Below, piece after piece: positions 3,592 through 52,548 of a stretch of 64,000 nt of DNA. Each line of letters starts with the position of its first letter. Positions within the stretch are counted from its first letter, which is position 1. Origin of the DNA: Okamejei kenojei (taxonomy: Eukaryota); assembly GCA_035221665.1 (NCBI GenBank), contig CM069160.1, forward strand, positions 34,410,001 to 34,474,000, in the 5' to 3' direction. A program made the position numbers and the translations under genes. The notes beneath the pieces were generated by a model. That model was not told the DNA's origin and made no database searches. It saw only the letters and a program-made list of their open reading frames with translations.

Positions 3592-3876
3592 GATTTGGAC
3601 TCCGGCCCTGGATCCGCTTGGAGGAAAGCGCCACGCAAGGAGTGCGTGTGGTGTGTAAGTCGGATGGATGGTTTCCCAAGCCGGAGATACGGTGGCTGGA
3701 TGGGAGTGGACAAGATGTGACAGCGCAGTCTGACACACTGTTCACTGAGGACTCCAGCGGGCTGATCACTGTCCACAGTCACATCGATGCCACAAGTGAT
3801 TCTGTGAACAGGTATTCCTGTTACATACGAAGTAAAAGACTGCGAAAAACACAAAAGGCCCATCTCCAGATATCAG
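3592..3876 (+). CDS. BTN-like IgC exon, copy 1
   Basis: ttgcag|GA...TCAG|gtatgt, 285 nt. GFGLRPWI..VVCKSDGWFPKPEIRWLD..RYSCYI matches the B7/BTN IgC pattern C-x-S-x-G-W-F-P-x-P. Confidence 0.9.
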
Positions 3877-4756
3877 GTATGTGGGAGCCTGGATAACCCT
3901 CTATAAAAGAGAGAAGTTGATACACGGAACTGCAGGAGACATACACTCAGGAAACCTAGTAACCTTTGCTTTCCATCTCTCTCCATCCCACCCCACCCTA
4001 GTTCTTCGACTAGTTTCACTGTCCTGATTAATTTTGCTGATTGTATGCCTCATTGTCACCGTCCCCTCCGCTAACAATGAACCATTCTACATTTCCTTGA
4101 ACAATGTCTGCTTTGATCTGACGTTTTCACTCTTTACCCTTCTATATCTCCGGTCTCCCTCTCGCCTGACTCTCAGTCTAAAGAAGGGTCTCGACCATGA
4201 ACGTCATCCGTTCCTACTCTCCCGAGATGCTGCCTGACCCGCCGAGTTATTCCCGCATTTTGTGTCTATCTGCGGTGTTAACCTGCATCTGCAGTTCCTT
4301 CCTACACACAGGATCTATAACTGATCAGGTGTGGGATACCTCAGGAATGGACCCCAACATTCGGCAAGTGATGGGCAGCTGGGGCTGGTTGTTGGTGCTG
4401 TGGATGGGGAGATGGGGTTATAGACTAGGTGCCGCTGGGAGGAGACCACTAGTGCGTTGGGAGCTGATAAATTCAGTTCCACCTCCCGCTCCTCCTGTCT
4501 TAGTGGGAGCAAGTTCAATGCCTTTCCAGACTGTCCCAATGAGGAAACAAGGAACTGCAGATGCTGGTTCAGAATAAAAGACTCCCTCCACACCCCCCCC
4601 CCCCCCCCGAAACAGCAGTCATCTCCGTCAACTTATTCAAATGCTCGTGATAGGGGCGAGATCGGAACTGGAAGTCAGCTGCTGTGCTGTGTCTCAACTG
4701 AAGATGAAATCTACACATTATTTTATGATATGGATGCCCCGTGTTTCATGTCAGTT

Positions 4757-5931
4757 AGAATCATAGAATCATAGAAAATAGGTGCAGCAGTAGGCCATTC
4801 GGCCCTTCGAGCCTGCACCGCCATTCAATATGATCATGGCTGATCATCCAACTCAGTATCCTGTACCTGCCTTCTCTCCATACCCCCTGATCCCTTTAGC
4901 CACAAGGGCCACATCTAACTCCCTCTTAAATATAGCCAATGAACTAGCCTCAACTACCTTCTGTGGCACAGAATTCCACAGACTCACCACTCTCTGTGTG
5001 AAAAATGATCTTCTCATCTCGGTCCTAAAAGACTTCCCCCTTATCCTTAAATTGCGACCCCTTGTTCTGGAGTACCGCAACATCGGGAACTATCTTCCTG
5101 CATCTACCCTGTCCAACACCGTAAGAATTTTGTAAGTCTCTATAAGATCCCTCCTCAATCTCCTAAATTCCAGCGAGTACAAGCCGAGTCTGTCCAGTCT
5201 TTCTTCAAATGGAAGTCCTGCCATCCCAGAAATCAGTCTGGTGAACCTTATCTGTACTCCCTCTATGGCAAGAATGTCCTTCTTCAGATTAGGAGACCAA
5301 AACTGTACGCAATACTCCAGATGTGGCCTCACCAAGATCCTGTACAACTGCAGTAGAGCCTCCCTGCTTTTGTACTCAAATCCTTTTGCTATGAATGCCA
5401 ACATATCATTCGCTTTCTTCACAGCCTGCTGCACCTGCACGCCTGCTTTCAGTGACTGGTGTACCATGACACCCAGGTCTCGCTGCATCTCCCCTTTTCC
5501 TAATCACTATTCAGATAATAGTCTACACTCCTGTTTTTGCCGCCAAAGTGGATAACCTCACATTTATCCACATTATACTGCATCTGCCATGCATTTGCCC
5601 ACTCATCCAACCTATCCAGGTCACCTTGCAGCCTCCTAACATCCTCCTCACAGCTAACATTGTCCCCCAGCTTCGTGTCATCCGCAAACTTGGAGATGTT
5701 GCATTCAATTCCCTCATCCAGGTCATTAATATATATTGTAAATAGCTGGGGTCCTAACACTGAGCTTTGCGGTACCCCACTAGTCACTGCCTGCCATTCT
5801 GAAAATGACCCGATTAGTCCTACTCTTTGGCCCCTGTCTGCCAGCCAGTTCTCTATCCACACCATTACTGAACCCCCAATACCGTGTGCTTTAAGTTTGT
5901 ATGCTAATCTCTTATGTGGGACCTTGTCGAA
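4757..5931 (-). mobile_element. CR1 LINE (CR1-A), 5'-truncated, intronic
   Basis: RT motifs GVPQSSVLGP and FADDTKL. Tail (TTCTATGA)n. AGTT on both flanks. The empty site is visible at about 51340. Confidence 0.95.
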
Positions 5932-6595: not shown

Positions 6596-6724
6596 ATATG
6601 TTCATCAATAAAGTTAACGAGTTCAACATCTGGGTGCCGATATTCTGGGTGTTTGCCGGCCTTGTGGTCACAGCTGCTGCCTTCAATATAATGACCCACA
6701 GATACGAAGACAAAAAGATTCAAG
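6596..6724 (+). CDS. BTN-like transmembrane exon, copy 1
   Basis: tttctag|AT...CAAG|gtaagg. Encodes DMFINKVNEFNIWVPIFWVFAGLVVTAAAFNIMTHRYEDKKIQ: a hydrophobic helix followed by charged residues. Confidence 0.85.
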
Positions 6725-7275: not shown

Positions 7276-7302
7276 AACTCCAGCTGTTTTGCACTTTGGA
7301 AG
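7276..7302 (+). CDS. 27-nt cytoplasmic linker exon (ELQLFCTLE)
   Basis: atttccag|...GAAG|gtaaga, phase 1-1. Micro-exons of this size are typical of BTN juxtamembrane regions. Confidence 0.75.
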
Positions 7303-8130
7303 GTAAGATATTTCGGGGAATTCCGACTCCAATTTACAACGACTGATTGAGAAATGTGTAATGTCGTTTCACAGCCCTTCTCCTGTGTCCGTGGTCCACC
7401 TTCCGCTAATCCTAGCGTCATGTTGGGCACAGACATTGTGGGCCAAAGGGCCTGTTCCTGTGCTGCATCGTTCTATCTTCCTCTTCTGATCCACTCACCA
7501 CCAAGTCCCTCGTCCCTTCCATTCATCTCACCTTTCAGACCGCAGTTCAATGGACTGTGTTTACTCATTTTATGTCTTGGAACCCCTTGGTGAACGAGAT
7601 AAAAACATGTTCTCATTAATTTATATCTCCAACAGAATTGGACAAATAATTATTTTATCCTGTGAATGTCTGAATACAATTTGGAAGAAACCTACACGAA
7701 AAGCCAACGATGTTTCAGTGAAATCTGCAAATATACACCCAGATTATGGTTTACTTGGGACAAATTCCTCTTGCCTCTTTGCAGTTCTCTTATTTTAACA
7801 TCGGGAAATCATGAGTCTCAGGCGGTATTAAAAGGGGCTGAGGGTGTAGCCTTCAGAAACAACAACGTTGAGATTTGTCATGGAAAATGCTCTGTTGCCT
7901 GTCCTTACTGATTACAGTCTGGGCGTCAGGAAGAGCTCTCTCTCTGCGACCTCCGCCCAGCTTGCTTCAAGATGTTCGGCTGGATGGTTAGAGATGAATA
8001 GACCATTTGATCTGTGCTGTTATTGTGGATTGTAACCTATCTTGTGGACATTTCTATTTCTACTTTGAATCAGCAAACAATGCAAGTTTTGAAGTGTAGT
8101 ATTTCTGTTTTTTGCAGGATATGATGATAT

Positions 8131-9346
8131 AACCATATAACCATATAACAATTACAGCACGGAGACAGGCCCTCTCGGCCCTTCCAGTCCGTGCCGACCA
8201 TTTGTTTTCCCCTAGTCCCATCTACCTGCACTCAGACCATACCCCTCCATTCCCTTCACGTCCATATACCAATCCACTTTACTTTTAAATGTTAAAATCG
8301 ATCCTGCCTCCACCACCTCTGCTGGAAGCTGATTCCACACAGCCACCACCCTCTGAGTAAAGAAGTTCCCCCTCACGTTACCCCTAAAAACTTCTGTCCC
8401 TTAATTCTCATGTCATGCCCTCTTGTTTGAATCTTCCCTACCCTCAATGGGAAAAGCTTATCCACGTCAACTCTGTCTATCCTTTCATCATTTTAAAGAC
8501 CTCAATCAAGTCCCCCCTTAACCTTTTGCGCTCCAAAGAATAAAGACCTAACTTGGTTCAACCTTTCTTTGTAACACAGTTGCTGGAACCCTGGCAACAT
8601 TCTAGTAAATCTCCTCTGTACTCTCTCTATTTTGTTGACATCCTTCCTATAACTAGGCGACCAAAATTGTACACCATACTCCAGAATTGGTCTTACCAAT
8701 GCCTTGTACAATTTTAACATTACTTCCCTACTCCTATATTCAATGCTCTGATTTATAAAGGCCAGCACACAAAGGCTTTCTTTACCACCCTATCTACATG
8801 CGATTCCACCTTCAGGGGACTATGCACAGTTATTCCTAGATCCTCTGTTCCACAGCATTCCTCAATTCCCTACCATTTACCATGTACGTCCTATTTGATT
8901 TGTCCTGCCAAGATGTGCACTTCACACTTATCAGCATTAAATTCCATCTGCCATCTTTCAGCCCACTTTTCCAAATGGCCCAAATCTCTCTGTAGACTTT
9001 GAGAATCTACTTCATTATCCACAATACCACCTATCTTAGTATCATCTGCATACTTACTTATCCAATTTTCCACCCCATCATCCAGATCATTGATGTACAT
9101 GACAAACAAACAGTGGACCCAAACACAGATCCCTGAGGCACCCCACTGGTCACCGGCTTCCAACCTGACAAACAGCCATCCACCATTACTCTCTGACATC
9201 TCCCATTCAGCCACTGTTGAATCCATCTTGCTACTCCGCCATTAACACCCAAAGATTGAACCTTCTGAACCAACCTTCCATGGGGAACCTTGTCAAAGGC
9301 CTTACTGAAATCCATATAGACAACATCCACTGGATGTTGTCTATAT
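8131..9346 (-). mobile_element. CR1 LINE (CR1-B, a different subfamily) inserted into a 27-nt coding exon
   Basis: RT motifs [15 protein letters not shown] and YADDTK. Tail (TTATATGG)n. It splits GATATGATGATAT|GGATACTGAATATG and is absent from the mirror copy at 15340-15365. Confidence 0.9.
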
Positions 9347-9790
9347 GGATACTGAATATGATAAGTACAGATAATTCTGCATCCCAATACTTTGTACTAT
9401 TTCACATTCTATTCCGGCTCACAGAGCCATCCCATTCTGCCCCTAATGTTTTGTGACCCGTTTGATGAAGCGTTATTGTCACATGTACCTCAGTACATTG
9501 ACGTTCCTCTCCTCTTCACCCCTCTTGCTCACGCTTGCACTGTTACTTTCCCCTCCACTGCTACCTCTCTCACTTCCTAGCACCATTCCTCCACTCCGCC
9601 ACCCACCCAACTTGCTCGCCCCCGTGCCTCACACACCTTTACTTCCCATCTTTGCCCCTCTATCTTCTCAATATCCTGCTTTCCCTTTTCTCCACCGCTG
9701 CATCTTCTGCCCAATCCGCTCCACAACGCTCTTCCCCTTTCGCAACCCACCTGCCGTCTCCTCTGCCGCTCATCCCACCACTGCCATTTC

Positions 9791-10083
9791 GGGCGCCACG
9801 GTGGAGCAGACGGTAGAGTTGCTGCCTCACAGTGCGTGAGAACGGGTTCCATCCTGACTACGGGTGCTGCCTGTGCGTAGTTTTTACATTATCCCAGTGA
9901 CCGCGTTGGTTATCTCCAGGTATCCCGGTTCCCTCCCACACTCCGAAGATGATTTTTCAATTTGAGGATTAATTGTCTACTGTAAATTGTCCCACGTTGT
10001 AAGATACTGTTAGTGTACGGGGTAGTCGTTGGTCGGTGCGGACTCGGTGGGCCGAAGGGCCTGTTTTATGCTGTGTCTCTAAA
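9791..10083 (+). mobile_element. tRNA-derived SINE (HE1-like) with a CR1-type tail
   Basis: A-box-like GGTGGAGCAGACGG and B-box-like GGTTCCATCC. 3' end gggccgaagggcctgtttt..gctgtgtctct. Mirror copy at about 14605-14888 (-). Confidence 0.75.
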
Positions 10084-10359: not shown

Positions 10360-10839
10360 TCTCCGTCACCCTGGACGTGGAAACAGCGCATCCGCGGCTC
10401 GAGGTGTCTGACGATCGCGAGCGGGTGAAAAATGTCGGGACCGAGAGGAGTCTCCCTGACACTGGGAAGAGGTTTACATACTGGTCTGGCGGGGAGTCGG
10501 GACTGGTGTCTGGGAGTCGCCGCAGAGTCTCTGGAGAAGAAGGAGGCGGTGAAACTGACCCCGGAGACTGGAGTCTGGTCCTTGGAGCGCTCGAGAGACA
10601 GGTTTTATGTAAACGTTTTACCGGATGCCAATGTCCCCACCCGTCCCATCCCCGGGAGGGTGGGAGTTTATCTCAGTTACGAGTCTGGGAAAGTTTCATT
10701 CTACGACGCGGACTCCAAGTCCTTTCTCTACTCCTTCACTGGGAATACATTCACGGAGAAACTTTATCCTTTCTTCGCCACTTGGGACATAAACCATTCA
10801 CTGAGAATCTGCCAAGTTCCACTCTGCGCCTTAAAGTAG
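10360..10839 (+). pseudogene. B30.2/PRY-SPRY terminal exon, copy 1, frameshifted
   Basis: ccccccag|(V)[21 protein letters not shown]. The [19 protein letters not shown] segment is missing, then [18 protein letters not shown] follows in another frame. Confidence 0.9.
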
Positions 10840-13418: not shown

Positions 13419-16400
13419 ACACTAAAGCAGGAAGGGACTGTTGGCGGGGCAGCCTTACTTCTGTTGAATTATTCCAGCACTTTCCGTCTTTTTCTTTGGA
13501 AACCAGCATCTGCAGTTCATTATTTCTCCTAATAATGTTATTGTTCCGTTTCGCTGCAAATGGCAATGCAACACTATTGAACAAGTGAGGGAGGAGAGAC
13601 CCGGGTCGCTGTATTCGCTTTGTACCGCGGTCTTCGGCTGCATTTACATCTGCGCTCGCTGGGGGTTTATGACGTAGAATTTGAGGATTCAACGGGACTC
13701 GTTCAGCACCGACCGGTCTATCCCACAGTCATGGCCCACGCTCCTGACGCCAGCCCCTGGTCCCGACTACTTTAAGGCGCAGACTGGCACTTGGCAGATT
13801 CTCAGTAAATGGTTTATGTCCCAAGTGGCGAAGAAAGGATAAAGTTTCCCCGTGAATGTATTCCCAGTGAAGGAGTAGAGAAAGGACTTGGAGTCCGCGG
13901 CGTAGAATGAAACTTTCCCAGACTCGTAACTGAGATAAACTCCCACCCTCCCGGGGATGGGACGGATGGGGACATTGGAATCCGGTAAAACGTTTACAAA
14001 AAACCTGTCTCTCGAGCGCTCCAAGGACCAGAGTCCAGTCTCCCGGATCAGTTTCACCTCCTTCTTCCTCTCCACAGACTCTGCGGCGACTCCCAGACAC
14101 CAGTCCCGACTTCCCGCCACGTCCACCTCCCAATAATGTCTCCCCGATGTGAATCCCTTCGATCCCAGGACAGAAGACCAGTAAGTAAACCTCTTCCCAG
14201 TATCAGGGAGACTCCTCTCAGTCCCGACATTTTTCACCCCCTCGCGATCCTCAGACACCTCGAGCCGAGGATGCGCTGTTTCCACGTCCAGGGTGACGGA
14301 GACTGGGGGGAGAAAAAGGAAGAAGAGAAGAACAGAGAATCAGAGAGCCGTCGGGGGGGTCGGGGCGAGACGCCTGCGGAGCGGCCCCGGGATTGAGAGA
14401 GGTCCGAGTGGGATTGAAGGACAGAGTGAGGGGCAGGTGGGTCCGGGGGGTGTGCAGCGAGGGGGGAGGGGACGTGTCAAGGGCAGGAGGGCGAGCTTCT
14501 GGGGTTAAGAGCAACTGGGGCTGAGCCAGAACTGTGCGATCGGGGCGCGTCAACCTGTGCGGCAAGGGTGAGGAGGAGAGTACAAATGGGCAGGGGACCG
14601 TCACTTTAGAGATACAGCATAAAACAGGCCCTTCGCCCACCGAGTCCGCACCGACCAACGACTACCCCGTACACTAACAGTATCTTACAACGTGGGACAA
14701 TTTACAGTAGACAATTAATCCTCAAATTGAAAAATCATCTGCGGCGTGTGGGAGGGAACAGGGATACCTGGAGATAACCAACTGGGATAATGTAAAAACT
14801 CCGCACAGGCAGCACCCGTAGTCAGGATGGAACCCGTTCTCACGCACTGTGAGGTACCAACTCTACCGTCTGCTCCACCGTGGCGCCCGAAATGGCAGTG
14901 GTGGGATGAGCGGCAGAGGAGACGGCAGGTGGGTTGAGAAAGGTGAAGAGCGTTGTGGAGCGGATTGGGCAGAAGATGCAGCGGTGGAGAAATGGGAAAG
15001 CAGGATATTGAGAATGATAGAGGGACAAAGATGGGAAGTAAAGGAGTGTGAAACGTGTTGAGGCAAGGGGGCGAGCAAGTTGGGTGGGTGGCGGAGTGTA
15101 GGAGGAAAGGTGCTAGGAAGTGAGAGAGGTAGCAGTGGAGGGGAAAGTAACCTGTGCAAGCGTGAGCAAGCGGGGTGAATGAGGAGAGGAGAGGAACGTC
15201 AATGTACTGAGGTACATGTGACAATAACGCTTCATCAAACGGGACACAAAACATTAGGGCAGAATGGAATGGATCTGTGAGCCGGAATAGAATGTTGAAA
15301 TAGTACAAAGTATTGGGATGCAGAAATATCTGTACTTACCTTATTCAGTATCCATATCATCATACCTGACAAAAAAACAGAAATTACTACACTTCAAAAC
15401 TTGCATTGTTTGCTGATTTCTGTTAGTAGAAATAGAATGTCCACAAGATAGGTTACAATCCACAATAAACAGCACAGATCAATGGGCTATTCATCTCTAA
15501 CCATCCAGCGCGTACATCTTGAAGCAAGACTGGGCGATGGGTCGCAGAGAGTGCTCTTCCTGACGCCCAGACTGTAATTAGTAAGGACAGGCAACAGAGC
15601 ATTTTCCATGACAAATCTCAACGTTGTTGTTTCTCAAGGCTACTCCCACAGCCCCTTTTAATACCGCCTGAGAATCATGATTCCCGATGTTTAAAAATAA
15701 GAGAACTGCAAGAGGGCAAGAGGAATTTGTCCCAAGTAAACCTACCCTAATCAGGGTGTATATTTGCAGATTTCACTGAAACATCGTTCGTGGCTTTTCG
15801 TGTAGGTTTCTTTCCAAATTGTATTCAGACATTCCACAGGATAAAAAATAATTATTTGTCCAATTCTGTTGGGAGATATAAATTAATGAGAACATGTTTT
15901 TATCTCGTTCACAAGGGGTTCCAAAGAGATAAAATGAGTAAACACAGTCCATTGAACTGCGGTCTGAAAGGTTGAGATGAATGGAAGGGACGAGGGACTT
16001 GGGTGCGATGACGTGGATCAGAAGAGGGAAGATAGAACGATGCAGCACAGAGGAACAGGCCCTTTGGACCACAATGTCTGTGCCCAACATGACGCTAGGA
16101 TTAGCGGAAGGTGGTGGACCACGGACACAGTGAGAAAGGGCTGTGGTGAAACGACATTACACATTTCTCAATCCAGTCGTTGTAAATTGGAGTCGGAATT
16201 CCCCCGAAATATCTTACCTTCCAAAGTGCAAAACAGCTGAGTTTGGAAATAAGAACAAGTCCCAGGACCGTGTCAGTGACTGCGCACAGACAGAGAACAC
16301 CCTCCGTGCAGACGGTGCTCTCTGGATTTCAGACACTGTTGACAGTTTAAACGAGTGCACTATCTAAACTGCTTGCCCAAACATTGCCCATGGATCTGCA

Positions 16401-19400
16401 GACTTTCAACACTTTGGGTTGGGAGTAAGTAATTTCCCCAGCTCCCCTCTAATCCTATGCCCAGAACCTTCAACCTATTGTCCCTAGTCATTGGTCTGAC
16501 AGTCATGGAAAAAATTACAAAATTTTTTTTCCTTCCCATGGGCTCATCCCATTATTCTATACACCAGGGCATCTTCCCCTTGGGGGGGGTGGGGCGGGCG
16601 ACTTCACCCATCCACCCTCGATGAGATAACATTGCCGCTAAGGTTTGTATTATTAAATCTTTCCCCGCTCACCGTAAGTGAAGCTTTCTAATTCGTGATT
16701 TCAATGTCCATAGGTAAATTTCTATACTGTGCACTCACCCCCTTATCTATTCCCTTCATTGAATGTATACACTCAAAATGATCACCGCTCAACCCCCCCC
16801 CCCCCACCCCCCCACACCCGCGCCCCTCTTACTTGAAACTGACTTTTTTGTCTTCGTATTGTGGATCAATAGATTGAAGGCCAGAGGCTGTGACACAAGG
16901 CGGCAAACAGCCCAGAATATCGGCACCCAAGGGGATTTGTTGAATCGTGAACTGTTTGATGAACATATTAGAAGATGAATTTGCGTGCACTCGTATCAGA
17001 TGTCCCAGCATGAGAACGGAGCTACAGCGAGATATTACGGCATCTGACTTTATTCTTGGTAGCAGGAGGGCTGTGAAGGGTGTTCTTATAGATGTTGTGT
17101 ACTAAACCATGCTGGAATAGAGAGGGTGAGGGCACAATCTTTCACCGGATAATTCAAGAATTAGACGGGCGCAGGCTTTAGGTGAGAGGGGCATGTTTAA
17201 TGCTAATCTCCAGGGGCACGTTTTCACCTCATAGGATAATGGGAATATGGGAACGAGCTGCCGGAGGAAGTAGTGAAGGCAAGGGTACTATAACATAATT
17301 TAAAAATAAAAAAGGCAATTGGACAGGGGATGCGGATAGGGAAAGGTTTGGGGGAGTTTGCAGTTTTTGATTTTACCAGTTGCATTTTGTTCTGGCGAGC
17401 AGTGTCCTTTAGAGCCCTTTCTCTGGTGATGATGAAATGTGCCGGCCGATCAGGGAGCGCCCTCGGACGCTATCCCCGCCAAACGGGTGTACGGGGACAG
17501 AGGTTTTAGAATGATAAAGGTCGATCTTCTCATTTACGCAGGGGGGGGGGCCCAGATTAGGAAGGTTGTATCACTTTACAGGCTTGGCCGTGTAGTAGTG
17601 AAGTGATATGTCCTAACAACTCGCACAAGAACCTAACTCACACAATTAGCGGGTTTGACTGAGATCTCAGCCGCTGCTATGAACTTTCGACAAGGTCCAA
17701 ACATAAGAGTTTAGCATACAAACTTAAAGCACACGGTATTGGGGGGTCTGTATGGATGTGGATAGTGAATGGCTGGAGGACAGGAAGCAAAGAGTAGGAG
17801 TAATCGTGGTCCCTTTAGAATGGCAGGCAGTGATAGTGGGGTATCCGCAGGGCCTCAGTTTTGGGACCCCAGCTATTTCCCATTATATATGTATTGATCT
17901 GGCTGATGCGGGAATTAATTGCATCATCTCCATGGTTTGCGGACTGAACACGAAGCTGGGGGGCATCAGAGGTTTGTTATCTGTGGATGCTAGGAGGCTG
18001 CAGGTGAACCTGGATATGGGGTTGAAGAGATGTGGGGGCAAAGGCATGACAGGTGCTGTATAATGTGGATATTTGTTGGTTATCCTATTTGGCGGCAATA
18101 AAAGGAGCGGGGTAGACTTTTATCGGTATGGTGGGCGTTTGGAAAAGGGGAGATGGGCAACGAGACCGGGGTGGGGTCAGGGGTACTCCATGTCTTTGTT
18201 TGTAGTATTTGACATGGCAGGTGCAGCGGGATGTTGAAGAAAGCCAAGGAGGAAAGAAACAAGAACTAAAGCGAACAAATGGTTGATGTGGCTTTAATAG
18301 CAAAATGATGTTTGATGGTCTGTTTCTTAAGCAGGGTGGTTGACTGCAGTTGGGACAGGGGTCTTGTGAGGCCACACCTGGATTATTGCGTCGTACAGTT
18401 TTTTGGTCTCCTAATTGAGGAAGGACATCATTCTTGCCATGGAGTGCAGGAATGTACAGAGAAGTTGAATGTTCACCTTGAATCCTGGCGCTTGGCAGTA
18501 CTTCCCATATGAAGAAAGACTGGATAGGATCTGCTTGTACTCGCTGGAATTTAGGAGTTTGAGGGGGGAACTGCAAGCGATGTGGGGGGGTGGGGGGGGG
18601 GGGGGGGGTGGGGAATATTTATAGAGACCTTAAGGTGTTCCATAAGGCTAGATGCAGGAAGGATTGTGTACCGATGTGGGGGGGGAAACAAAAATAAAGG
18701 GAACTCCGGATCAAAGGGGGGTACAATTTAAGGACAAGGGGGACGGGACGTTTTTTAGGACCCGAGATGTGATTATGAGAAGTTCATTTGTACTCTGAGA
18801 GTGGTTGAGAGTATCTGGAGAATCTCTTGACCACAGAAGGTAGTTGAGGCCAGTTCTTGGCGTTACTTATAGAGGTGATAGTTGGATCTGTTGGGCCCGT
18901 GTGGATAATGAGGATTTGCATGGTATGGAACGTGAAGGCAGGGTACAGGTTTCTGAGTTGGGTGAGTCAAGACCATGTTAATATCTGGTATGGCGGTGCT
19001 GGATCGAAGGGGCGAATGGCCTACTCCTGCACCTATTTTCTATTGTTTCTATGATTTTTCTAACTGACATGATACACGGGGCAACAATATCAGAAAAATA
19101 ATGTGTAGATTTCATCTTCAGTGGACAACAGCAGCAGCTGACTTCCAGTTTCCGATCTCGCCCTGTCACCGAGCATTTGATTAAGATGGTGTAAATGGAC
19201 TGCTGTTTAGAGGGGGGGGGGGGGCAGTCTTTTATTCGGAACCAGGCATCTGCAGTTCCTTGTTTCCTCACTCCTGCCGACCCAGTCTGAAAGGCATGAA
19301 ACATGCTCCCACTACACAGGAGGAGCGGGAGCGGGAGAGACGGGGCAGGTAGAGGAGAAGAGAGAACGCGGAACAAGGGGGTGGGGGTGGGGGGGGGGGG

Positions 19401-21416
19401 GGGGGGGAGAGCAGTGGGGAGCAGAAAAGTTGAGAAAGAGTGAGTAAGAAGTGGAGCGTGAAAGCAGCAGAAAAATAGCGGCGAGAGGGTGGGGGGGGGG
19501 GGGGGGGGAAGAACGGGGAGGTGGTGGGTGGTGGGGAGGTGGTGGGAAGGGGGAAGAGAGAGAGGGAGAGGGAGAGCGAGAGCGGGGGGGGAGGGGGGGG
19601 AGGGAGGTTGTGGTGTGGGAATAATGGAACGGAGAAACTGGGGGATGCGCGGGGAGGTGGGATATAGAGCGGGAGGTGCGAAGGAAGAGTGCGAGCGGGG
19701 GAATCGGGGGGGGGCGGTGGGTTGGTGGAAGGGGTGGAATGGCGATATGAGGAAGAAGCGGGGGGGGAAGAGCGGGAGGTGTGGGAACTGAGTGCGGGAG
19801 GAGAAGCGGGGGAGGCGGGGAAGGCTGGGGAGGGTTGGAGAAACAGAGAAGCGGGAGGGGGAGGTGGTTGGAACTCTGATGGAATTGGAGGAGGTCTGAA
19901 AGCATGCATCGAGCAGCGAGCGGGGGGGAGGTGGGGAGCAAGCGGAGAGCGGGAAAGCAAGCGGCAGCAAAAGAGGAAGAATGGCGGGGGAGAAGCGAGA
20001 TAGAGCGGAGCGGGGAGGAGAGCGGGTAACAGCGGGAGGTGGTGGCGGGGGAAGGGGGAGAGAAAGCAAGAGGGACGGTGGAGGTGATGGAGGGGGGGGC
20101 CGCGGGAGTCGGGGAGGTGTGGTTTTTTGGTTGGAATAGAGGGAGAGGGTGTGTGGAAATGGTGGAATGGTGGTGTGGGGGGAGCGGGAGGTTTGGAATG
20201 TGGAACTGATGGATTGGAGTGGAACTGATGGAACTGAATAATTGTATTTTTGTGTTGTGGACGTTGTGGCAAGAAGTGCGGAGCGGGGGGGAGCGGGTGG
20301 TGGTCTGGTGGTGGTTGTGGAATGGATGGTGGTTGGGAAGGGTGGAATGGGAAGGAGGGGGGGAAAAGCGGGAGGATGGGGAAGGTGGGGGGAAAGCGTG
20401 CTGGGAGGTTTTGCGGGGGGGGATGCAAGCTGAGCGGAAAGAGAGCAAGCAGCGGGTGGGGGAGGTGGGGATGGGGAGGGTGGGATTGGATGTGTGGAAC
20501 CTGGAGGAGGCGGAGGAGGGGGGGGAGTAGCGGGGAAGGGTGGGGTGGGGGGGGAGTGGGGAAGCGGGAGGGGGAGCGGGGAGGTGGTGTGGAGGGAGGG
20601 GGAGAGCGGGGTGGTGGTTTGTGGGATGGTTGGGGAGCTGGGAAGGTTGGTTGGAATTGGAACTGAATTTATCAGCTCCCAACGAACTAAAGTGTCTCCT
20701 CCCAGCGGCACCTAGTCTATAACCCCATTTCCCCTACACCAGCACCAGCAACCACAACCAGCCCCCCAGCTGCCCATTCACTTGCGAATGTTGGGGTTTT
20801 GGTTTATTCCTGAGGTATCCCACACCGATCAAGTTATAGACCCCTGTGTTGTAGGAAAGGAACTGCTGATGCAGGTTAAACACCGCAGATAGACACAAGT
20901 TGCTGGGAGTAGAGTAACTCGGCGGGTACAGGCAGCATCTCGGGATGAGGAAGGTACGGGGTGCGTCAGGGTCGGACCTTCTTCAGACTGTGAGTGTCGG
21001 GCGAGAGGGAGACCGGAGATATAGAAGGGTACACGTGTGCAAACGTCAGATCAAAGCAGCCATTGATCAGCGAAATGTAGAATGGTTCATTGTTAGCGGA
21101 GGGAGACGGTGGACAATGAGATCATACAAATCAGCAAAATTAATCAGGACAGTGAAACTAGTCGAAGAACTAGGGTGGGGATGGGTGGAGAGAGATGGAA
21201 AGCAAAGGATTACTAGGTTTACTGAGTGTATGTCTCCTGCGTTCCGTTGTAAACAACTTCTCTCTTTTATAGAGGGTTTCCAGGCTCCCACATACCTGAT
21301 ATCTGGGATGGGCCTTTTGTGTTTTACGGCAGTCTTTTACTTGTAATGTAGCAGGAAAAAAAAAAACAACAAAAAAAATACCTGTTCACGAATCCCTTGT
21401 GACATCGATGTGACTG
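13419..21416 (-). repeat. Inverted segmental duplication of about 3776-11201
   Basis: Colinear reverse-complement match covering exons, the SINE and CR1-A. The spacer is 11202-13418. Error density rises toward the gap at 21417. Confidence 0.9.
13767..14302 (-). CDS. Intact B30.2/PRY-SPRY exon, copy 2
   Basis: Open frame [68 protein letters not shown]-stop. Confidence 0.92.
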
Positions 21417-26116: not shown

Positions 26117-26189
<73 letters not shown>

Positions 26190-32100: not shown

Positions 32101-34696
32101 AAGTTTGGGGCCGTTACCTGCCCAAGGGGAGAGAGATGGGTTTGTGTACAGTTAGTTTTCCCTTCTCAGATCGTAAAAGGGGCAATAGATAAGACGAAGG
32201 AGGAAGTAGTAAAAGAGGTTACTAAGGTAGTAGTCACTAAGCCTCTCCCTTCCCCCACATACTCAGCCTCAAGTGCACCAGACAATGTACGAAGAAATCA
32301 AGAAGCAGATCGAAATCCCTGAAGGAGAAAAAAAACTGTTTGTGGACTTGGCCACCCGGATAGCTGGGACCCTGAATGTGACTAACTGTTGGGTCTGCGG
32401 AGGACCACTGATGAATTCACGCTGGCCGTGGAGAGGATCCATTGTTGAAATATGGGACCTGATGGGGTGGAACCTGACAGTTGGACAAGACCGAGATCCC
32501 CAGGTATGGGTCCTGACAGACGCTCCGGTCGGGACTGAGTGTATCGCTAGGCCCTGGGCAAAGGATGCCGTCCTAGTAGGCAGCAGCCCCTGCCAGCGCA
32601 TCGTCACCCAGTGGCCAAATCAGTCCCGAGTGTGGTGGCCAGAGGAGCCTAAATGGTATCTAACTAAGAAATATGGGAAAAACTGCGCTATCCGGATGGA
32701 GATTGATGGAGTGGAATCAGCCGGACTATGGAACTGCACCGGGAATAACCCTTATCAGGGGATCCCAGTATTGCGAGATATATGGAACAAGGTTGCCTCT
32801 AGTGGACAGGCCCCTGAAGGACTGTTATGGATATGTGCATACAAGGCATACTCGGTGTTACCGATGAATTGGAGTGGGACTTGTTTTATTGGACTGGTGC
32901 AACCTGGATTCTTCCTGTTAAACCCCAAAGAAGGCCGGTCGTTAGGAACACCTGTATTTGATGACCTATATCGGAAAAAAAGGAAAATAGACATTGGAGA
33001 ATGGGAAGATGATGAATGGCCACCAGCAAGAATCATCTCATAATACGGACCAGCCACTTGGGCACCGGATGGATCCTGGGGCTACCGAACACCAGTATAC
33101 ATGTTAAACCGGTTCATAAGGCTACAGGCAGTACTGGAGGTAATTACCAACCAAACTGCGGGGGCGCTGGAGATGCTGGCAAAGCAGTAGACGCAGATGA
33201 GAGCAGCAATACACCAGAACAGGTTAGCCCTAGATTACCTACTGGCAGAAGAAGGAGGGGTATGCGGGAAATTCAACCTCTCTAATTGCTGTTTGAACAT
33301 CGATGATAATGGACAGGCAGTGATGGACATATCAGAAGGGATCCGGAAGTTGGCGCATGTTCCAATACAAAAGTGGAATTTGATTATGGGAACCCAATGG
33401 TTGGATTCCATCCTCGGAGGAACATGGTGGAGAACGGTGGGACTTGTGTTTCTATGTGCAGTGGCTGGACTGATCTTTATCCCCTGTTGTATCCCTTGTT
33501 TTAGGGAACTTATTACCAGAAGTATAAGTCAGATGCAGGCTGTAGTCATGCCTATGGGAGAGAAAGGGGAAATACAGAAAATAATGATAATGCGGCCAGG
33601 GGAAGTTTATGATTTACAGGAGCAGAAGGTTAGGACGATGTTACGTCAGTTCGAATTGAAGGAACTTAAAATGAGGGTTTAATCAGTGTATGCGTAGCAA
33701 AAGAAAAAGGGAGGATTGTGAGGGATAAAGTGATTAAACCCTATTAAAGAAAGGAGTTTTAAAGAGAATTCAAACAGAGAGGGGCTGGAGAGAGGATTCT
33801 GACACAGCAAGGAGTGATGGATGGGACCCTTGTCACTATAGCTTAGCTTTAGTACTGATATAGGAAAACTGAGAGGGTTCACTAGGAGGTGAGTAAAACT
33901 GGGCCAGGTCATGAGCAGCTGAGCATGCTTAATAGAATAAATGAATATTACAACACACCCCTGGTTAAGAAATTGATCATTACCATGAACATGTTTGAAC
34001 ATGCAATGTATGATATGGGAGGTGCGAGGGGATGTACGGTGGGATGTACCTACAGATTGTGCACCTCCGACCCTGATTGGAGAAGGGTCCGGAGGGGGGA
34101 TTGAATGTAAGATTTTGTGTATAAAGGGGGGTGATCTCTCTGGCTTCGGTGTGTCTCGAGTTGGAGAGGCACCCGGTCTTCAGACTCGTAAAATAAAGAA
34201 ATCTCTTGCTTCCAGGATTTAGTCTTTGAGTATTAATTGTGAGCATAAAGGGTATCTCACAATTATAAATCAACATTGTTGATTGAACGCTCTTTACCAT
34301 TTGTTCTTTTCACATTTATTGTCAACAATCGGTGTTTTACTTACTCACCTCGAACTCGCAGTTGAGCTGGAGATGTTTCATACTCAGTTCTGTCTGTAAC
34401 TGAACATGTATATTCCCCTTCATCAAACCTTCTTACGTTCTTTATTCTGAGGGAAATGTTCCCTTTGGCCACTTCATCTTTAAACAGTTCGGCCCTTGCT
34501 CTGTAATCCTGGTGTTGAGCGAGGGCGTCATTGTGTCCTTGTCTGTACACGAGGATTGGCGAGGTGAGACCTGACCTCCTCCACTGCACGACCATGTTGC
34601 GGGTCAATATATCTGGGACAAGCTGACATTCCAACACCACATCCCCACCTACAGTGGCTACAAAACCATCGCCCGGTACAATAATGAGAAATTCAC
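13767..34696 (-). CDS. Butyrophilin-like gene copy 2 (IgV-IgC-TM-linker-B30.2), spliced
   Basis: IgV 34696-34349; IgC partly in the gap (21416-21296 visible); TM about 16969-16834; micro-exons about 16243-16218 and 15365-15340; B30.2 14302-13767. The middle exons lie in error-rich sequence, so intactness is unresolved. Confidence 0.7.
21417..21916. other. Assembly gap (others at 39148-39430, 41464-41619, 42778-42951)
   Basis: Runs of N. Confidence 1.
23036..23690 (+). repeat. ERV 5' LTR
   Basis: TGTGAGGGATAAAG...GGTATCTCACA. TATAAA at 23551. Carries a block of about 90 bp that is absent from the 3' LTR. Confidence 0.95.
23694..23712 (+). promoter_or_regulatory. ERV primer-binding site, degenerate tRNA-Pro type
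   Basis: TGGGGGCCCGTTACGCGAT compared with canonical TGGGGGCTCGTCCGGGAT; 3 nt after the LTR. Confidence 0.7.
24900..26643 (+). pseudogene. gag: ERV gag remnant (capsid C-terminus and nucleocapsid)
   Basis: [15 protein letters not shown]; EALTVY|VRRDEEKQK across an insertion; knuckle [14 protein letters not shown] (His replaced by Tyr); TAG at 26641. Confidence 0.8.
25209..26309 (-). mobile_element. Non-autonomous LINE-derived element nested in gag
   Basis: 5' end AAGTGGCGGCGCTG; GC-rich internal repeats (gccgctggagcgccgaagcc); AATAAA plus a (CTGAAT)n tail; ATAT on both flanks. The gag frame rejoins on removal. Confidence 0.75.
26644..28250 (+). pseudogene. pol: ERV pro/pol remnant, heavily deleted
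   Basis: [17 protein letters not shown] protease start; YVDDLL at about 27500; [10 protein letters not shown]; an RNase H trace; integrase C-terminus [21 protein letters not shown]. Confidence 0.8.
28295..33682 (+). pseudogene. env: ERV env (gamma-type, ERV3-like), split by a CR1
   Basis: Signal peptide [16 protein letters not shown]; CWVC motif; furin site RKKR; [19 protein letters not shown]; TM helix. Stops at 33041 and 33188 in an otherwise single frame 32273-33682. Confidence 0.92.
28471..32044 (+). mobile_element. CR1 LINE (ORF1 esterase part and ORF2 EN/RT) nested in env
   Basis: [34 protein letters not shown] and FADDTKL. (TTTCTATG)n tail. Confidence 0.95.
33717..34261 (+). repeat. 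ERV 3' LTR
   Basis: Direct repeat of 23036-23690, preceded by the PPT AAAAGAAAAAGGGAGGAT. Confidence 0.95.
34349..34696 (-). CDS. BTN-like IgV exon (348 nt, intact)
   Basis: cccgcag|GT..CGAG|gtgagt. [56 protein letters not shown] carries the BTN IgV signature. Confidence 0.93.
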
Positions 34697-36338: not shown

Positions 36339-37439
36339 TTTCACTGGTTGTTCACGATTATTTTTTTTATATAACATTGGGGTCTCAACACCAATCCCCG
36401 TGGGACACAACTCCTTACATCTTGGAACCCTGAGAGTAAAACGATCAGCACCCACTCTCTGCTTCCTGCTATCCCGATTATCCACAAAAATGAAGTTGCC
36501 TCCTACTCCTGCAGGTCCCATCATCGCCCACAGAGGGAGGAAGAACCTCCTTACTGATCGTATTAAGTGATGTGGAGAACTGCATTCAAATGAGCGATTT
36601 TAAAATATGAATCTTCTGACCCCATGAAGCCCCCTCCATGAGATAAATAAATAGAAATCAGACCAGATGTTGTGGTCATTACCGTGGACTGAGCTGAGGA
36701 TCCCGTGCAGTAACAACACAGCGCAGTGAACCTCTCCCATCCCAGTGGAGGGGTCAGTGCCTGAGGGTGAGAGAGAGAGAGAGAAATGTTAGACCCGTGA
36801 TGGGCGGGAAGCTGTGACCCCCCCTCCTCCTCCGTCCCCGCTGCCGGTGTCCACCACCCCCACTCACTGTTGAGATAAGTGCCCTCGGACAGCGCTGACC
36901 CGGGGGGTAGGGTGGGGGCTGTCGGGAGGGATGCGATCCTGCGACCGCTTACACCTTTGTGCTCGGGTTCAGAGCAAACCTTCCTGCTTTCAATGACAGC
37001 ACCCACAAATATTTATAGCACAAAAAATGTCCATTTTGGCGGATTTTAACAGGTAAGAAGGTTCGCGTTCCGTGTGTTAACAGTATATGCCGGAGGCTGC
37101 CTTGTCCTCCACATTGCTGGAACTGCTCCATGCGTCACGCCCTTTGACCCGATGACCTTACGGGCAACCCCGCTGTATGTTTCAGTAAGATTTCCTCTCA
37201 TCTGTCTAAATTCCAGAGTAGGAAGTGAGGAAACGTGTTACACAGGAGGCAGTCGCTGTGAGATTCGGGTTCAGTTACATTCATATGTTAAAGAAGGCAA
37301 TGCACATGCTGGAAAATCGAGGGTACACAAAAGGCTGGAGAAACTCAGCGGGTGCAGCAGCATCTAAGGAGCGAAGGAAATAGGCGACGTTTCGGGCCGA
37401 AACCCTTCTTCAGACTGAAACATTCATATGTTCCCAGCA

Positions 37440-37940: not shown

Positions 37941-38108
37941 GACAGAGTGGCCCAGTATTCAGTTCAGCGCGTCTTCACAGCTGACCCCCCCCCCCCCCCC
38001 CAGCTCCACCTGCCCCTCACTCACTCCCCCCGACCCCCCTCGGACCTCTCTCAGTCCCGGGTCTCCCCCCGACCCCCGGGGACTCTGATTCTCTGCTTCT
38101 CCCCCCAG

Positions 38109-38262
38109 TCTCCGTCACCCTGGATGCAGTGGAAACAGCGGGTCCGCGGCTCGAGGTGTCTGAGGAACAGGGTGAGGCTGACCTGGACCCTGAGGATTCT
38201 CCCTGACACCGGGAAGAGGCTTATAGACTGGCCGTGTGTGCTGGGATCGGAAAGATTCACAG
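38109..38262 (+). pseudogene. Orphan 5' half of a B30.2 exon (frameshifted)
   Basis: ccccccag|SVTLD..ETAGPRLEVSE..LPDTGKRLIDWPCVLGSERFT, ending at a CA repeat and CR1. Confidence 0.8.
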
Positions 38263-40055: not shown

Positions 40056-40178
40056 CTTTGATGCGTCTGTTTTGTTTCACGTTCCAATAAAACACAGCAA
40101 CGTGGGCGGCAATGAGAAGACAAACGGTGAGGACCAGCGGCAGGGCCCAGTCAGGAACTCCAGCAGGGAAGATATCAT
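40056..40178 (-). CDS. Orphan transmembrane exon of a divergent BTN/B7-like paralog
   Basis: ctctgcag|AT..AAAG|gtacgt, phase 1-1. DDIFPAGVPDWALPLVLTVCLLIAAHVAVFYWNVKQNRRIK. Confidence 0.65.
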
Positions 40179-49557: not shown

Positions 49558-50394
49558 TTGTAGCAATTTTACAAAATTTTGAGATTTTAAAAATCAAGTC
49601 TGCAATGTATCCCATCAGATAAAGCATAAAAAGAAGTTTAATTTGACATCTAATTCCCTTTCAAATCTTCAGTATTAAAAAAGTTACGGCCATTTTCATA
49701 CTTGGAAATTAGCATCCCTATTGCTTTTCCATTGACTTAACACAAAAGTTGTGATCGAGGACAGTCAAAAGCCCATAACATTCTTTAAAATTAAGAGAAC
49801 TGAAAGACATTTTCCGTTATTACAGATTGACCTGAAATTAAAGCATATAATTAGTTAGTTACCCAATTGTAGCTAATTACAAAATTCAATTACTAGATCT
49901 AAACATCTATCCATTTCTTAAGAAAATATTAACATTTTTTTAAAAAGCCTAAGTGTCCAAATAACATTCACACAAGAATTCACAATATAACATGATTTTT
50001 AAATCTCATTGTTATGAATTTATAGGCCAAATTGAAGGAATTTAGTTTTTAATGCCCATAAATGAATGGCCATTTTATTCATCTTTCAAGTGGGAATTTC
50101 TGGAACGGGATGGATTGGAACATTGTGGTTGTGGTGAATTTAAACCCCATATCGGCAGGAAAAATACTGCCGGCTCATATGGGGAATAAATCAACGTTTG
50201 GCAACATGAAATGTTGATTAAGGACATCTTAACAAGCAAGTTTATATGTAAAAATAAACAGCTTTTCTTTACCTGTCCCCTACGTAAAATCAATCCCCGT
50301 TGTCGGCGTTCACGGCATTAGAAGCTAACTTTTATTTTACTCCAGCGCTCAAATAGTCAGGCGATTAAAAAAAATTTTCAGATACCGGCAGTCG

Positions 50395-52548
50395 GATGTC
50401 ACAAGTGATTCTGTGAACAGGTATTCCTGTTACATACGAAGTAAAAGACTGCGAAAAACACAAAAGGCCCATCTCCAGATATCAGGTATGTGGGAGCCTG
50501 GATAACACTCTATAAAAGAGAGAAGTTGATACACGGAACTGCAGGAGGCATACAATCAGTAAACCTAGTAACCTTTGCTTTCCCTCTCTCTCCATCCCTC
50601 CCACCCTAGTTATTCGACTAGTTTCACTGTCCTGATTAATTTTGCTGATTGTATGCCTCATTGTCACCGTCCCCTCCGCTAACAATGAACCATTCTACAT
50701 TTCCTTGATCAATGTCTGCTTTTCGCACTTTACTCTTCTATATCTCCGGTCTCCCTCTCGCCCGACTCTCAGTCTGAAGAAGGGTCTCGACCCTGAACGT
50801 CACCCATCCCTTCTCTCCCGAGATGCTGCCTGACCCGCCGAGTTACTCCCGCATTTTGTGTCTATCTGCGGTGTTAACTTGCATCTGCAGTTCCTTCCTA
50901 CACACAGGGTCTATAACTGATCAGGTGTGGGATACCTCAGGAATAAACCCCAACATTCGGCAAGTGATGGGGAGCTGGGGCTAGTTGTTGGTGCTGTGGA
51001 TGGGAGATGGGTTTATAGACTCGGTGCCGGTGGGAGGAGACCACTAGTCCGTTGGGACAGCTGATAAATTCAGTTCCACCTCCCGCTCCTCCTGTCTTAG
51101 TGGGAGCAAGTCCAATGCCTTTCCAGACTGTCCCAATGAGGAAACAAGGAACTGGAGATGCTGGTTCAGAATAATAGAGCCCCCCACACCCCCGAAACAG
51201 CAGTCATCTCCATCAACTTATTCAAATGCTCATGACAGGGGCGAGATTGAAACAGGAAGTCTGGTGCTGTGCTGTGTCACTACTGAAGATGAAATCTACA
51301 CATTATTTTATGATATGGTTGCCCCGTGTTTCATGTCAGTTCATAGCAGCGGCTGAGATCTCAGTAAACCCGCTACTTGTGTGAGTTGGTTCTTGTGCGA
51401 GTAGTAAGGACATATCACTACACGGCCAGTCTGTGAAGTGATACGAACCCTTCCTAATCTGACCCTGCGTAATGAGAAGATCGACCTTCATCATTCTAAA
51501 CCTCTGTCCCCGTGACACCCGTTGGCGGGGATAGCGGTCGAGGGCGCTTCCCTGATTGGCGCACATTTCACCAGAGAAAGGGCTCTGACATTAGCTCGCC
51601 AGACAACATGCTACTGGTAAAATAAAAATTCAAATTCCCTCCAAACCTTTCCTATCCGCATCCCTGTCCAATTGTATTTTAAATTATATTATAGTACCTG
51701 CCTCAACTACCTCCTCTGGCAGCTGGTTCCATATTCCCAACATCCTTTGTGTGAAAACGTTGCCCCTGAGATTTGCATTAAATCTTGCCCCTCTCACCTT
51801 AAGCCTGTGCCCTCTAATTCTTGATTCCTCTATCCTGGGTAAAGTATTGTGCACTCACCCTCTCTATTCCCGTCATGGTTTAGCACACCTCTATAAGATC
51901 ACCCTTCAGCCTCCTGCTCTCCAAGGAATTAAGTCAACCGGCCAAATATCTCGCTATAGCTCTGGTTCTCAAGTGCTGGGACATCTGATACGAGTGTATG
52001 CATTTCCCTTCTAGATATGTTCATCAATAACGTTAACAAGTTCAACATCTGGGTGCCGATATCCTGGGTGCTTGCCGGCCTTGTGGTCACAGCTGCTGCC
52101 TTCAATATAATGATCCACAGATACGAAGACAAAAAGATTCAAGGTGAGAAGGGGCGCTGGGGAATGAGCGGGTGATCTTATAGGGGTGTATACATTCATG
52201 AAGGGAATGGATAAGGTGAGTGCTCAGAGTATTTTACCATGGACAGTGAATCACGAATTAGAAGGCATCAGCTTAAGGTGAGCGGGGAAAGATTTAATAC
52301 AAACCTTAGGGGCAATGTTTTCTGATTGAGGGTGATGGGTGAAGCCGCCAAGGGAAGATGCCCTTGTGTATGGAATAATGGGATAGAGCCATTGGGAGGG
52401 ATGTATTTCCATGATCTGCCAGAACAGTAACTAGGGACAATAGGTTGAAGGTTCTGGGCAGGAGGATTAGAGGGGAGCTGGGGAAATTACTTCAGTCCAA
52501 AGTGTGTTGAAAGTCTGCAGATCCATGGGCATGTTTGGCAAGTACTTT
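50395..52548 (+). pseudogene. BTN-like copy 3 relic: IgC 3' end (50395-50485) and TM exon (52015-52143)
   Basis: Colinear with 3786-7157 but lacks CR1-A. TM exon DMFINNVNKFNIWVPISWVLAGLVVTAAAFNIMIHRYEDKKIQ with intact splice sites. Confidence 0.88.

Follow-up and report, generated by a model that had tools for sequence, protein, structure and literature searches.

Results

Exons and gene copies in the window

The window (the whole 64-kb stretch of DNA analysed) comes from a skate, in agreement with the cartilaginous fish proposed by an earlier, sequence-only reading: its IgV shares 80-86% identity with proteins from Amblyraja, Leucoraja and Rhinoraja. As that reading also held, three related butyrophilin-like copies are accompanied by orphan exons, namely a TM exon and a B30.2 fragment (Table 1). 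The predicted domains were all matched by Pfam (V-set, E = 1.5e-12; C2-set_3, the BTN IgC profile, 2.3e-19; PRY, 5.2e-16; SPRY, 2.5e-19); these values are far beyond chance, and the exons are genuine. PDB matches were found for IgV and B30.2.

Table 1 Butyrophilin-like copies and exons in the skate window
Feature	Position	Strand	Remarks
Copy A (type 2a)	3592-10836	+	one of three related copies (A, B, C)
Copy A IgC exon, 285 nt	3592..3876	+	type 2a; intact, AG/GT ends
Copy A TM exon, 129 nt	6596..6724	+	intact, AG/GT ends
Copy A first 27-nt heptad exon	7276..7302	+	intact, AG/GT ends
Copy A second 27-nt exon	8118..9360	+	interrupted by ~1.2-kb retroelement piece, compared with the intact sister exon C30:34560603
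Copy A B30.2 exon	10360..10836	+	56-nt deletion causing a frameshift
Copy B (type 2a)	21416-13767	-	
Copy B B30.2 exon	13767..14302	-	PRY and SPRY intact; 79-82% nt identity to TRIM exons
Copy B heptad exons (15340-15365, 16218-16244) and TM exon (~16830-16970)	15340..17000	-	indel-rich
Copy B IgC, 3' remnant	21295..21416	-	stops at 500-N stretch 21417-21916
Type-1 IgV exon, 348 nt	34349..34696	-	intact, AG/GT ends
Type-1 signal-peptide exon	36683..36760	-	ATG at 36740; splice to IgV seen in related skate
Orphan 5' fragment of TRIM-array-type B30.2 exon	38093..38258	+	interrupted by LINE
Orphan type-1 TM exon, 123 nt	40056..40178	-	
Copy C: final ~90 nt of type-2a IgC, intron, TM exon 52015-52143	50395..52548	+	truncated on both sides

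The exon sizes given earlier stood for IgV (348 nt), IgC (285 nt), TM (129 nt) and the first 27-nt exon; a clean second 27-nt exon is missing from the window. In copy A this exon holds the retroelement piece (8131-9342, with ATAT duplicated at both ends) and has AT as its donor, and a perfect second 27-nt exon is found in the sister copy of A; in copy B the second short exon is 26 nt long and lies in noisy sequence. The signal exon and IgV of copy A lie outside the window (C30:34408901-34409500, the IgV ~500 nt before its start); this IgV carries four 1-nt insertions and 3 substitutions and is 36% identical to the window's type-1 IgV. The intron of the latter has an LTR element inserted, resumes at ~23035 and then enters the N stretch.

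None of the genes within the window is complete: copy A has lesions, a 500-N gap is reached by both copy B and the type-1 gene, and copy C is a fragment, so that the full-architecture gene claimed for this stretch is nowhere intact. The lesions of copy A are real, although true gene death from its IgV frameshifts is doubtful. The heptad and TM indels of copy B are probably read errors. That every frameshift marks true gene death is rejected for the distal part of copy B on an indel/substitution ratio of ~1.5, vs. 0.09-0.30 elsewhere. Some of the seeming gene death probably stems from errors of assembly, the indel-rich sequence adjoining 500-N gaps.

Two gene plans in a cluster on the MHC chromosome

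The window lies inside a skate butyrophilin-like cluster of at least 0.7 Mb on chromosome C30, the MHC class I chromosome. All 15 MHC-I matches fall on C30, at 1.5-8.5 Mb, and the cluster occupies 34.2-35.0 Mb; thus, the two share a chromosome at a distance of ~26 Mb, and the suggested MHC synteny is borne out at this level. A search for MHC class II beta gave no match anywhere and is uninformative.

The single IgV-IgC-TM-27-27-B30.2 gene assembled in the sequence-only reading proved to be a composite of an IgV of type 1, on the minus strand, and other exons of type 2a. Among the nine type-1 IgV exons in C30:34.23-34.96 Mb, seven are followed by a type-1 IgC and none by the IgC type of the window, which rules the composite gene out. 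Amino acid identity between type-1 IgC and the window (2a) IgC is 33-36%, and the Ig exons of the two types show only 51-52% nt identity. The type-1 exon plan is 58-348-282-120/123-33-27-B30.2, and two type-1 genes of the cluster splice to full ORFs of 466-467 aa that match P0007 (Rhinoraja), with IgV, IgC, TM, heptad exons and B30.2 in one gene. For the two 2a genes with a TRIM-like B30.2, the second short exon was not located. A head-to-head arrangement of types 1 and 2a, with 4-5 kb between them, occurs twice, as copies of one duplicated block; the locus is actively duplicating, as had been proposed. The signal-IgV and IgV-IgC splice joins of type 1 were seen in contigs of related organisms, taken as RNA by guess; among the joints listed for such contigs, mostly repeats, none connected TM or heptad exons to B30.2.

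Butyrophilin family membership and ectodomain trees

In an ectodomain tree of 46 rows, six B7-like rows from outside C30 (one a CD276 match) are separated with 97/93 support from the 40 butyrophilin-like rows, among which are mouse BTN1A1 and cat BTN2A2; HHLA2, MOG, chicken BG and BTNL are absent as named rows. The earlier assignment to butyrophilins instead of other B7 members is thereby upheld, and the ectodomain tree contains no one-to-one orthology to mammalian BTN/BTNL. In a tree of 82 rows, type 1 (35 rows, 100/100), type 2a (21 rows, 100/95) and a further type, 2b (11 rows, 99/95), each include sharks and batoids; by this tree, the subfamilies defined on the ectodomain are older than the divergence of sharks and rays.

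RING, B-box and coiled-coil exons were present in all nine loci checked of a TRIM array on the same chromosome, and none was found in the 734-kb cluster; therefore, the genes of the window are not TRIMs and have only the last exon in common with them. At the BTN3A1 H351 position, copy B (aligned to alpaca BTN3) has Trp, and His occurs in 0 of 23 exons of the skate's own genome. Of the six positions compared in the basic BTN3A1 pocket, H351 among them, copy B retains just the Lys. Judged from these residues, the phosphoantigen pocket is absent.

The B30.2 exon in butyrophilins and TRIMs

Seven B30.2 exons of the cluster are 86-96% identical in nucleotides to eight TRIM exons located up to 24 Mb away on the same chromosome, and the TRIM exons are 89-97% identical to each other; these TRIM exons were picked as top matches to a butyrophilin B30.2, and the likeness is therefore favoured. 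The window's own B30.2 copies reach 79-83% (copy A, 81-83% to seven of the eight and 79% to the remaining one) and are narrowly closer to TRIMs in amino acids (72 vs. 70%). The identity forms an island of ~0.6 kb (88-99% in each 100 nt between −100 and +500), with background levels outside. Members of a butyrophilin subfamily have the intron 5' of B30.2 in common, and butyrophilins at large the 3' flank, neither being common with TRIMs; the exception is a type-1 copy at C30:34530k, whose 3' flank is common with TRIMs to +708. pS was 0.067 between butyrophilins and TRIMs vs. 0.063 among TRIMs, and pN was 0.090. Between six butyrophilin exons and 17 array exons (nine of the latter checked for RING), no difference was fixed, and 49 of 525 columns were variable in both groups; B30.2 variation is concentrated in short patches. 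A test for mosaic tracts inside the B30.2 exon gave a negative result, 4779 of 5000 permutations yielding a value as low. The sequence-only reading had missed the B30.2 sharing with TRIM genes.

Across species, the B30.2 tree follows host lineage, with butyrophilins and TRIMs intermixed. On a quick tree of 128 rows, 13 changes suffice to explain host order (minimum 9, mean 64.1 after shuffling), whereas gene class takes 34 (minimum 2, mean 41.6 after shuffling). In a careful tree of 42 rows, chosen after the first tree with rows against the pattern omitted, the host-lineage pattern recurs in about seven host lineages, and AU tests rejected monophyly of type 1 (p = 3e-46), of 2a (p = 1e-39) and of the TRIMs taken alone (p = 1e-8). 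Among the omitted rows, the shark type-1 proteins P0003, P0033 and P0042 have a different B30.2, grouped by orthology (82% among themselves, 49-51% against TRIMs), and the B30.2 of P0046 and P0071 stand apart. The nearest B30.2 is a same-order TRIM, not a same-subfamily gene of another order, in 20 of 24 type-1, 13 of 14 type-2a and 1 of 5 type-2b rows, 15 additional rows having no TRIM sampled. Rows in the B30.2 comparisons are related, not independent, and the other-species proteins are RefSeq/UniRef predictions, some plainly fused models (P0002).

Discussion

What is new here is that the last (sensor) exon of skate butyrophilins closely matches that of otherwise unrelated TRIM genes on the same chromosome; butyrophilins in cartilaginous fish were already known. 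The window holds pieces of two old butyrophilin-like subfamilies whose terminal B30.2 was probably overwritten repeatedly by conversion from the same-chromosome TRIM array, and recurrent gene conversion is the likely cause of the B30.2 pattern, the mechanism being deduced from it. Speaking against this account are the negative mosaic-tract test, the shark type-1 proteins with a different B30.2, and the lack of a heptad-to-B30.2 joint among those listed. The array on the MHC chromosome would repeatedly donate B30.2 sequence to the terminal exon of types 1 and 2a, with subfamily 2b outside the exchange and the type-2a copies of the window having presumably quit it earlier (79-83%).

An ordinary birth-and-death cluster of mammal-like butyrophilins, selecting or activating gamma-delta T cells as heteromers, is a possible but less probable reading. 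The full architecture found in the cluster, ectodomains clustering with the butyrophilins of bony vertebrates and away from B7 members, the MHC chromosome and the two head-to-head pairs all suit it; however, it leaves the B30.2 pattern unexplained, and the lack of one-to-one orthology to mammalian BTN/BTNL and the residues at the H351 position speak against it. For the outer domains, such a cluster is compatible with the conversion account.

We consider it unlikely that the pattern goes back to a series of separate 3' swaps, by unequal crossover or by duplicating the 3' end of a TRIM, and not to ongoing conversion. The 3' flank at C30:34530k is what such a swap would leave, and compatibility inside the exon without distance decay also agrees with it, but in the other pairs the likeness has a limit at either end of the exon (−140 to +536), and therefore two breakpoints are needed. 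It is also unlikely that butyrophilin ectodomain exons were artefactually joined to stray TRIM-derived B30.2 exons, with many copies being false duplicates, even though the 734-kb cluster has five 500-N stretches and indel-rich sequence, window positions 32057-38001 are near-identical to C30:34335497-34341576 (8 mismatches in 6083 nt), several cluster B30.2 exons have no assigned gene, and heptad-to-B30.2 introns reach 11 kb. Against this, TRIM 5' exons are absent from the cluster, the flanks of B30.2 are those of butyrophilins, the pattern recurs in about seven host lineages, and the spliced models are full ORFs matching P0007.

Under recurrent conversion, the variable patches may represent the ligand-binding face, and intact genes would encode receptors at the cell surface, with an inner domain that draws on the binding repertoire of the TRIMs in the cytosol. 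By analogy with heteromers that engage gamma-delta TCRs (BTNL3/8, Btnl1/6, BTN2A1/3A), types 1 and 2a could pair and signal to lymphocytes, possibly gamma-delta T cells. Rather doubtfully, we suggest that elasmobranch butyrophilins might be membrane-anchored members of the TRIM sensor repertoire, loaded by conversion with the fast-diversifying B30.2 faces of antiviral-type TRIMs and reporting cytosolic pathogen structure to T cells at the surface; if so, butyrophilin signalling from the inside out would be an ancestral trait whose specificity varies, and mammalian phosphoantigen sensing one frozen case.

If the butyrophilin B30.2 of sharks and rays is continually refreshed from a TRIM array and hypervariable, a fixed metabolite pocket is impossible and the search for ligands should begin with TRIM-type targets, e.g. 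viral proteins. Whole-protein or B30.2 trees would then mis-date the family, given that class- or species-specific grouping can stem from conversion.

Comparison with known systems

B30.2 expansions in fish were reportedly described by Suurvali and colleagues in 2022 and may bear on novelty, and concerted evolution of BTN3 acts on the ectodomain. We found no report in the literature of butyrophilin-TRIM B30.2 exchange in cartilaginous fish; the supplements of PMC12841164 and PMC12262214 may bear on this. PMC10751288 and PMC8455134 mention neither TRIM, B30.2 nor butyrophilin.

The locus had been put forward as a poorly described system; however, chondrichthyan butyrophilins have already been reported, along with their class-specific duplications and MHC linkage (Marenco et al. 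2026, PMC12841164), and RefSeq annotates these genes as 'butyrophilin subfamily 1 member A1-like' (e.g. P0007, Rhinoraja type 1; P0075, Leucoraja type 2a). The genes described in the main text of that paper are the same, with IgV-IgC-TM-heptads-B30.2, duplications and MHC-chromosome linkage; that text has no type 1/2a/2b split or domain-wise trees, contains no occurrence of 'TRIM', and notes that butyrophilins persist in squamates without gamma-delta T cells. The skate genes resemble mammalian BTN/BTNL (BTN1A1, BTN2A, BTN3A, BTNL3/8) in domain order, phase-1 exons and short heptad exons, but have no one-to-one orthologues among them, do not retain the phosphoantigen pocket, and carry a hypervariable B30.2 in common with TRIMs.

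Zebrafish NLR-B30.2 genes (Howe et al. 2016, PMC4852459) are alike in that gene conversion of B30.2 crosses group boundaries within a single chromosome and variable patches are under positive selection; there, however, conversion runs within NLRs, whose B30.2 are closer to each other than to TRIMs, whereas in the skate it would connect surface receptors and TRIM ligases. In the available part of a preprint on the squamate harbiTRIM locus (PMC12262214), recombination is described among all PRY-SPRY domains of a locus of TRIMs, butyrophilins and orphan domains. That is one local locus, for which this part of the preprint does not state TRIM-to-butyrophilin replacement; in the skate, by contrast, the putative donors are as far as 24 Mb away, and B30.2 replacement throughout a lineage appears to recur across sharks and rays.

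Locus, host and family relationships

The window (G000:C30:34410001-34474000 of a 2.76-Gb genome) lies within a stitched butyrophilin cluster of 734 kb (C30, 34.23-34.96 Mb). The sequence-only reading had suggested a probable cartilaginous fish; the host is a skate, because the window IgV exon shares 80-86% identity with proteins from three genera of skates, against 57-73% with those of other batoids and 42-63% with those of sharks. MHC synteny, proposed there as a check, was found at the chromosome level: all 15 MHC class I matches in the genome map to C30 (1.5-8.5 Mb). TRIM genes of the RING-B-box-coiled-coil-B30.2 type, near-identical to one another, form an array along the chromosome (C30, ~2-35 Mb) that is interleaved with these class I genes, and additional, deeply diverged butyrophilin-like lineages are located at 16.28, 30.45-30.66, 32.27, 32.38, 33.34 and 33.72-33.75 Mb, including an apparently intact type-2b gene with its own B30.2 at 30.65 Mb.

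In the ectodomain tree (82 rows), type 1 (100/100), type 2a (100/95) and type 2b (99/95) each include sharks and batoids; thus, the split of these subfamilies predates the shark-batoid divergence. Consistent with the assignment to butyrophilins and not to other B7 members, a 46-row tree places six B7-like genes from other contigs apart from all butyrophilin-like rows (97/93). Butyrophilins of bony vertebrates are a separate group in this tree (96/85), whose branching relative to the chondrichthyan lineages it does not resolve. In RefSeq, these proteins already carry butyrophilin-like names. PMC12841164 describes butyrophilins in four chondrichthyans (MHC-linked in three), class-specific duplication, and retention of butyrophilins in squamates that lack γδ T cells; PMC11788884 and PMC13262535 date the family to gnathostomes, and in PMC11372145 btnl2 is named for a T-cell cluster of a shark.

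Exon organization and gene copies

The exons reported from the sequence alone are present, their sizes are as stated, and domain searches identify V-set, BTN-type IgC, PRY and SPRY. The single IgV-IgC-TM-27-27-B30.2 gene assembled from them is, however, a composite, the window exons being split between type 1 and type 2a. This follows from the exon order in the region, where the nine type-1 IgV exons are followed by a type-1 IgC in seven cases and by the window-type IgC in none; from the window type-1 intron, which continues past an LTR element and then enters a 500-N stretch; and from contigs of related organisms, presumably RNA, in which the type-1 signal exon is spliced to IgV across GT..AG (runs X1-X3) and, in one contig, IgV to type-1 IgC. 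The type-1 exon plan is 58-348-282-120/123-33-27-B30.2; of four models spliced on this plan, two give full ORFs (467 and 466 aa), whereas the reading frames of the remaining pair end after 216 and 440 aa. Tandem IgV duplications (V-V-C, V-V-V-C) occur in the models at C30:34571342-34583972 and in the predicted proteins P0050, P0013 and P0003 of other elasmobranchs. Upstream of the orphan type-1 TM exon, a duplicated block contains two arrays of 37-nt tandem repeats.

Features of the window
Feature	Position	Strand
Type-1 signal exon	36760-36683	-
Type-1 IgV exon	34696-34349	-
Orphan type-1 TM exon	40178-40056	-
Type-2a copy A	3592-10836	+
Type-2a copy B	21416-13767	-
Type-2a copy C (fragment, two exons)	50395-52548	+
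37-nt repeat, 6 copies	40911-41133	
37-nt repeat, 11 copies	42243-42647	
Endogenous-retrovirus-like element, LTR-bounded	23223-34262	
Its LTRs	23223-23691, 33809-34262	
Its env-like frames	32234-33682	
LINE interrupting it	28965-32043	
CR1-type LINE, near-complete	45513-49160	-
LTR-like stretch matching the Ty3/Gypsy-like element	55729-55907	
Ty3/Gypsy-like LTR retrotransposon	58646-62400	

Type 2a is represented by copies A, B and C. Three defects of copy A look like true lesions: its second 27-nt exon is interrupted by 1.2 kb of inserted sequence, a donor reads AT, and B30.2 has lost 56 nt; four 1-nt insertions in its IgV, just outside the window, may be read errors. Copy B has an intact B30.2 and an indel-rich 5' part (indel/substitution 1.5) that stops at a gap, so it may be complete in the animal and truncated only in the assembly; an intact counterpart is predicted in Leucoraja (P0075). 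The duplication and loss behind the proposed birth-and-death cluster are real, but the numbers of copies and pseudogenes cannot be relied on: 32057-38001 matches C30:34335497-34341576 (8 mismatches and 84 gap openings in 6083 nt), possibly an uncollapsed haplotype or a very recent duplicate.

The retrovirus-like element interrupts the intron of type-1 IgV at ~90 nt from its start and has sister copies at C30 34.277-34.356 Mb; its LTRs share 411 matches, with 29 substitutions and 28 gaps, and its env-like frames match TLV_coat below the cut-off (E 9e-5). The CR1-type LINE retains an SGNH/GDSL-esterase ORF1 piece with endonuclease and RT frames, and the Ty3/Gypsy-like element RT, RNase H and an integrase zinc domain.

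B30.2 exons common to butyrophilins and TRIMs

Genome-wide, 679 RING candidates and, with the window B30.2 as query, 633 B30.2 candidates were found, with the same spread and best matches mostly on C30 (~123 of the 150 scored B30.2 candidates, by hand count); except for the window's own two copies, scored candidates are 59-72% identical to the query (aa). TRIM architecture, RING-B-box-coiled-coil-B30.2, was present in all nine loci checked, and no RING, B-box or coiled-coil 5' exon was found in the 734-kb cluster.

Eight TRIM exons at distances of 2-24 Mb share 86-96% identity with seven B30.2 exons of the cluster, of which five belong to type 1 and two are assigned to 2a. The similarity begins in the intron, at about −140, continues as far as the stop codon and drops to background outside; the intron upstream of B30.2 is common within each butyrophilin subfamily. 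Silent divergence between butyrophilins and TRIMs (0.067) equals that among TRIMs (0.063), and no fixed differences separate six butyrophilin from 17 array exons, whereas type-1 and 2a Ig exons share 51-52% identity. Replacement divergence (0.090) exceeds silent divergence, with patches near residues 11-30, 41-50, 61-70, 81-110 and 161-170, several of which coincide with binding-pocket positions when aligned with alpaca BTN3 and TRIM21. H351 is documented in PMC7348870. The identity of copies A and B to TRIM exons is 79-83%, and in the tree both are placed with 2a counterparts from skates, which suggests that both left the exchange earlier; for 2b B30.2, the range is 64-67%.

Across species, a quick B30.2 tree (128 rows) requires 13 changes of host order (minimum 9) vs. 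34 of gene class (minimum 2). A careful tree of a 42-row subset, picked after the first tree, mirrors the host phylogeny: within a genus, butyrophilins adjoin TRIMs, and gene-class clades are rejected; the exceptions, namely, three shark type-1 proteins, P0046, P0071 and most of 2b, are among the 86 rows left out. Those shark proteins have a different B30.2 that tracks orthology. A TRIM of the same order is closer than the orthologue in 20 of 24 type-1, 13 of 14 type-2a and one of five type-2b rows, the TRIM sample being absent for 15 rows. Three sturgeon (Acipenser) butyrophilins, P0122, P0140 and P0156, carry two B30.2 domains, and one groups with a B30.2 protein of sturgeon that has no Ig domain; bony fish may undergo an exchange of this kind.

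Mechanism, function and precedent

The island of similarity, bounded on both sides, and its recurrence in many lineages make ectopic gene conversion of a single B30.2 exon the probable cause: the TRIM exon would have been copied over the butyrophilin one repeatedly, lineage by lineage. Against conversion count the lack of distance decay of site compatibility inside B30.2, the selection of TRIM rows by likeness, the predicted nature of the gene models, and the RNA evidence, which covers the IgC and TM exons and includes no joint into B30.2 among those listed. The products could be receptors at the cell surface whose inner sensor domain varies. By analogy with mammals and from one duplicated head-to-head block, types 1 and 2a might pair and contact the γδ TCR, the role originally proposed; they are unlikely to sense phosphoantigens as BTN3A1 does.

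The butyrophilin-like family is already known; the domain-level B30.2 exchange is apparently undescribed, no published butyrophilin-TRIM exchange in cartilaginous fish having been found in a search of mainly open-access literature. Related processes are reported in the passages covered of two studies, namely, recombination between the PRY-SPRY domains of a squamate locus with TRIMs and butyrophilins (PMC12262214) and B30.2 conversion across zebrafish NLR groups, which differs from the present case in that TRIMs are not involved in the process described there (PMC4852459).
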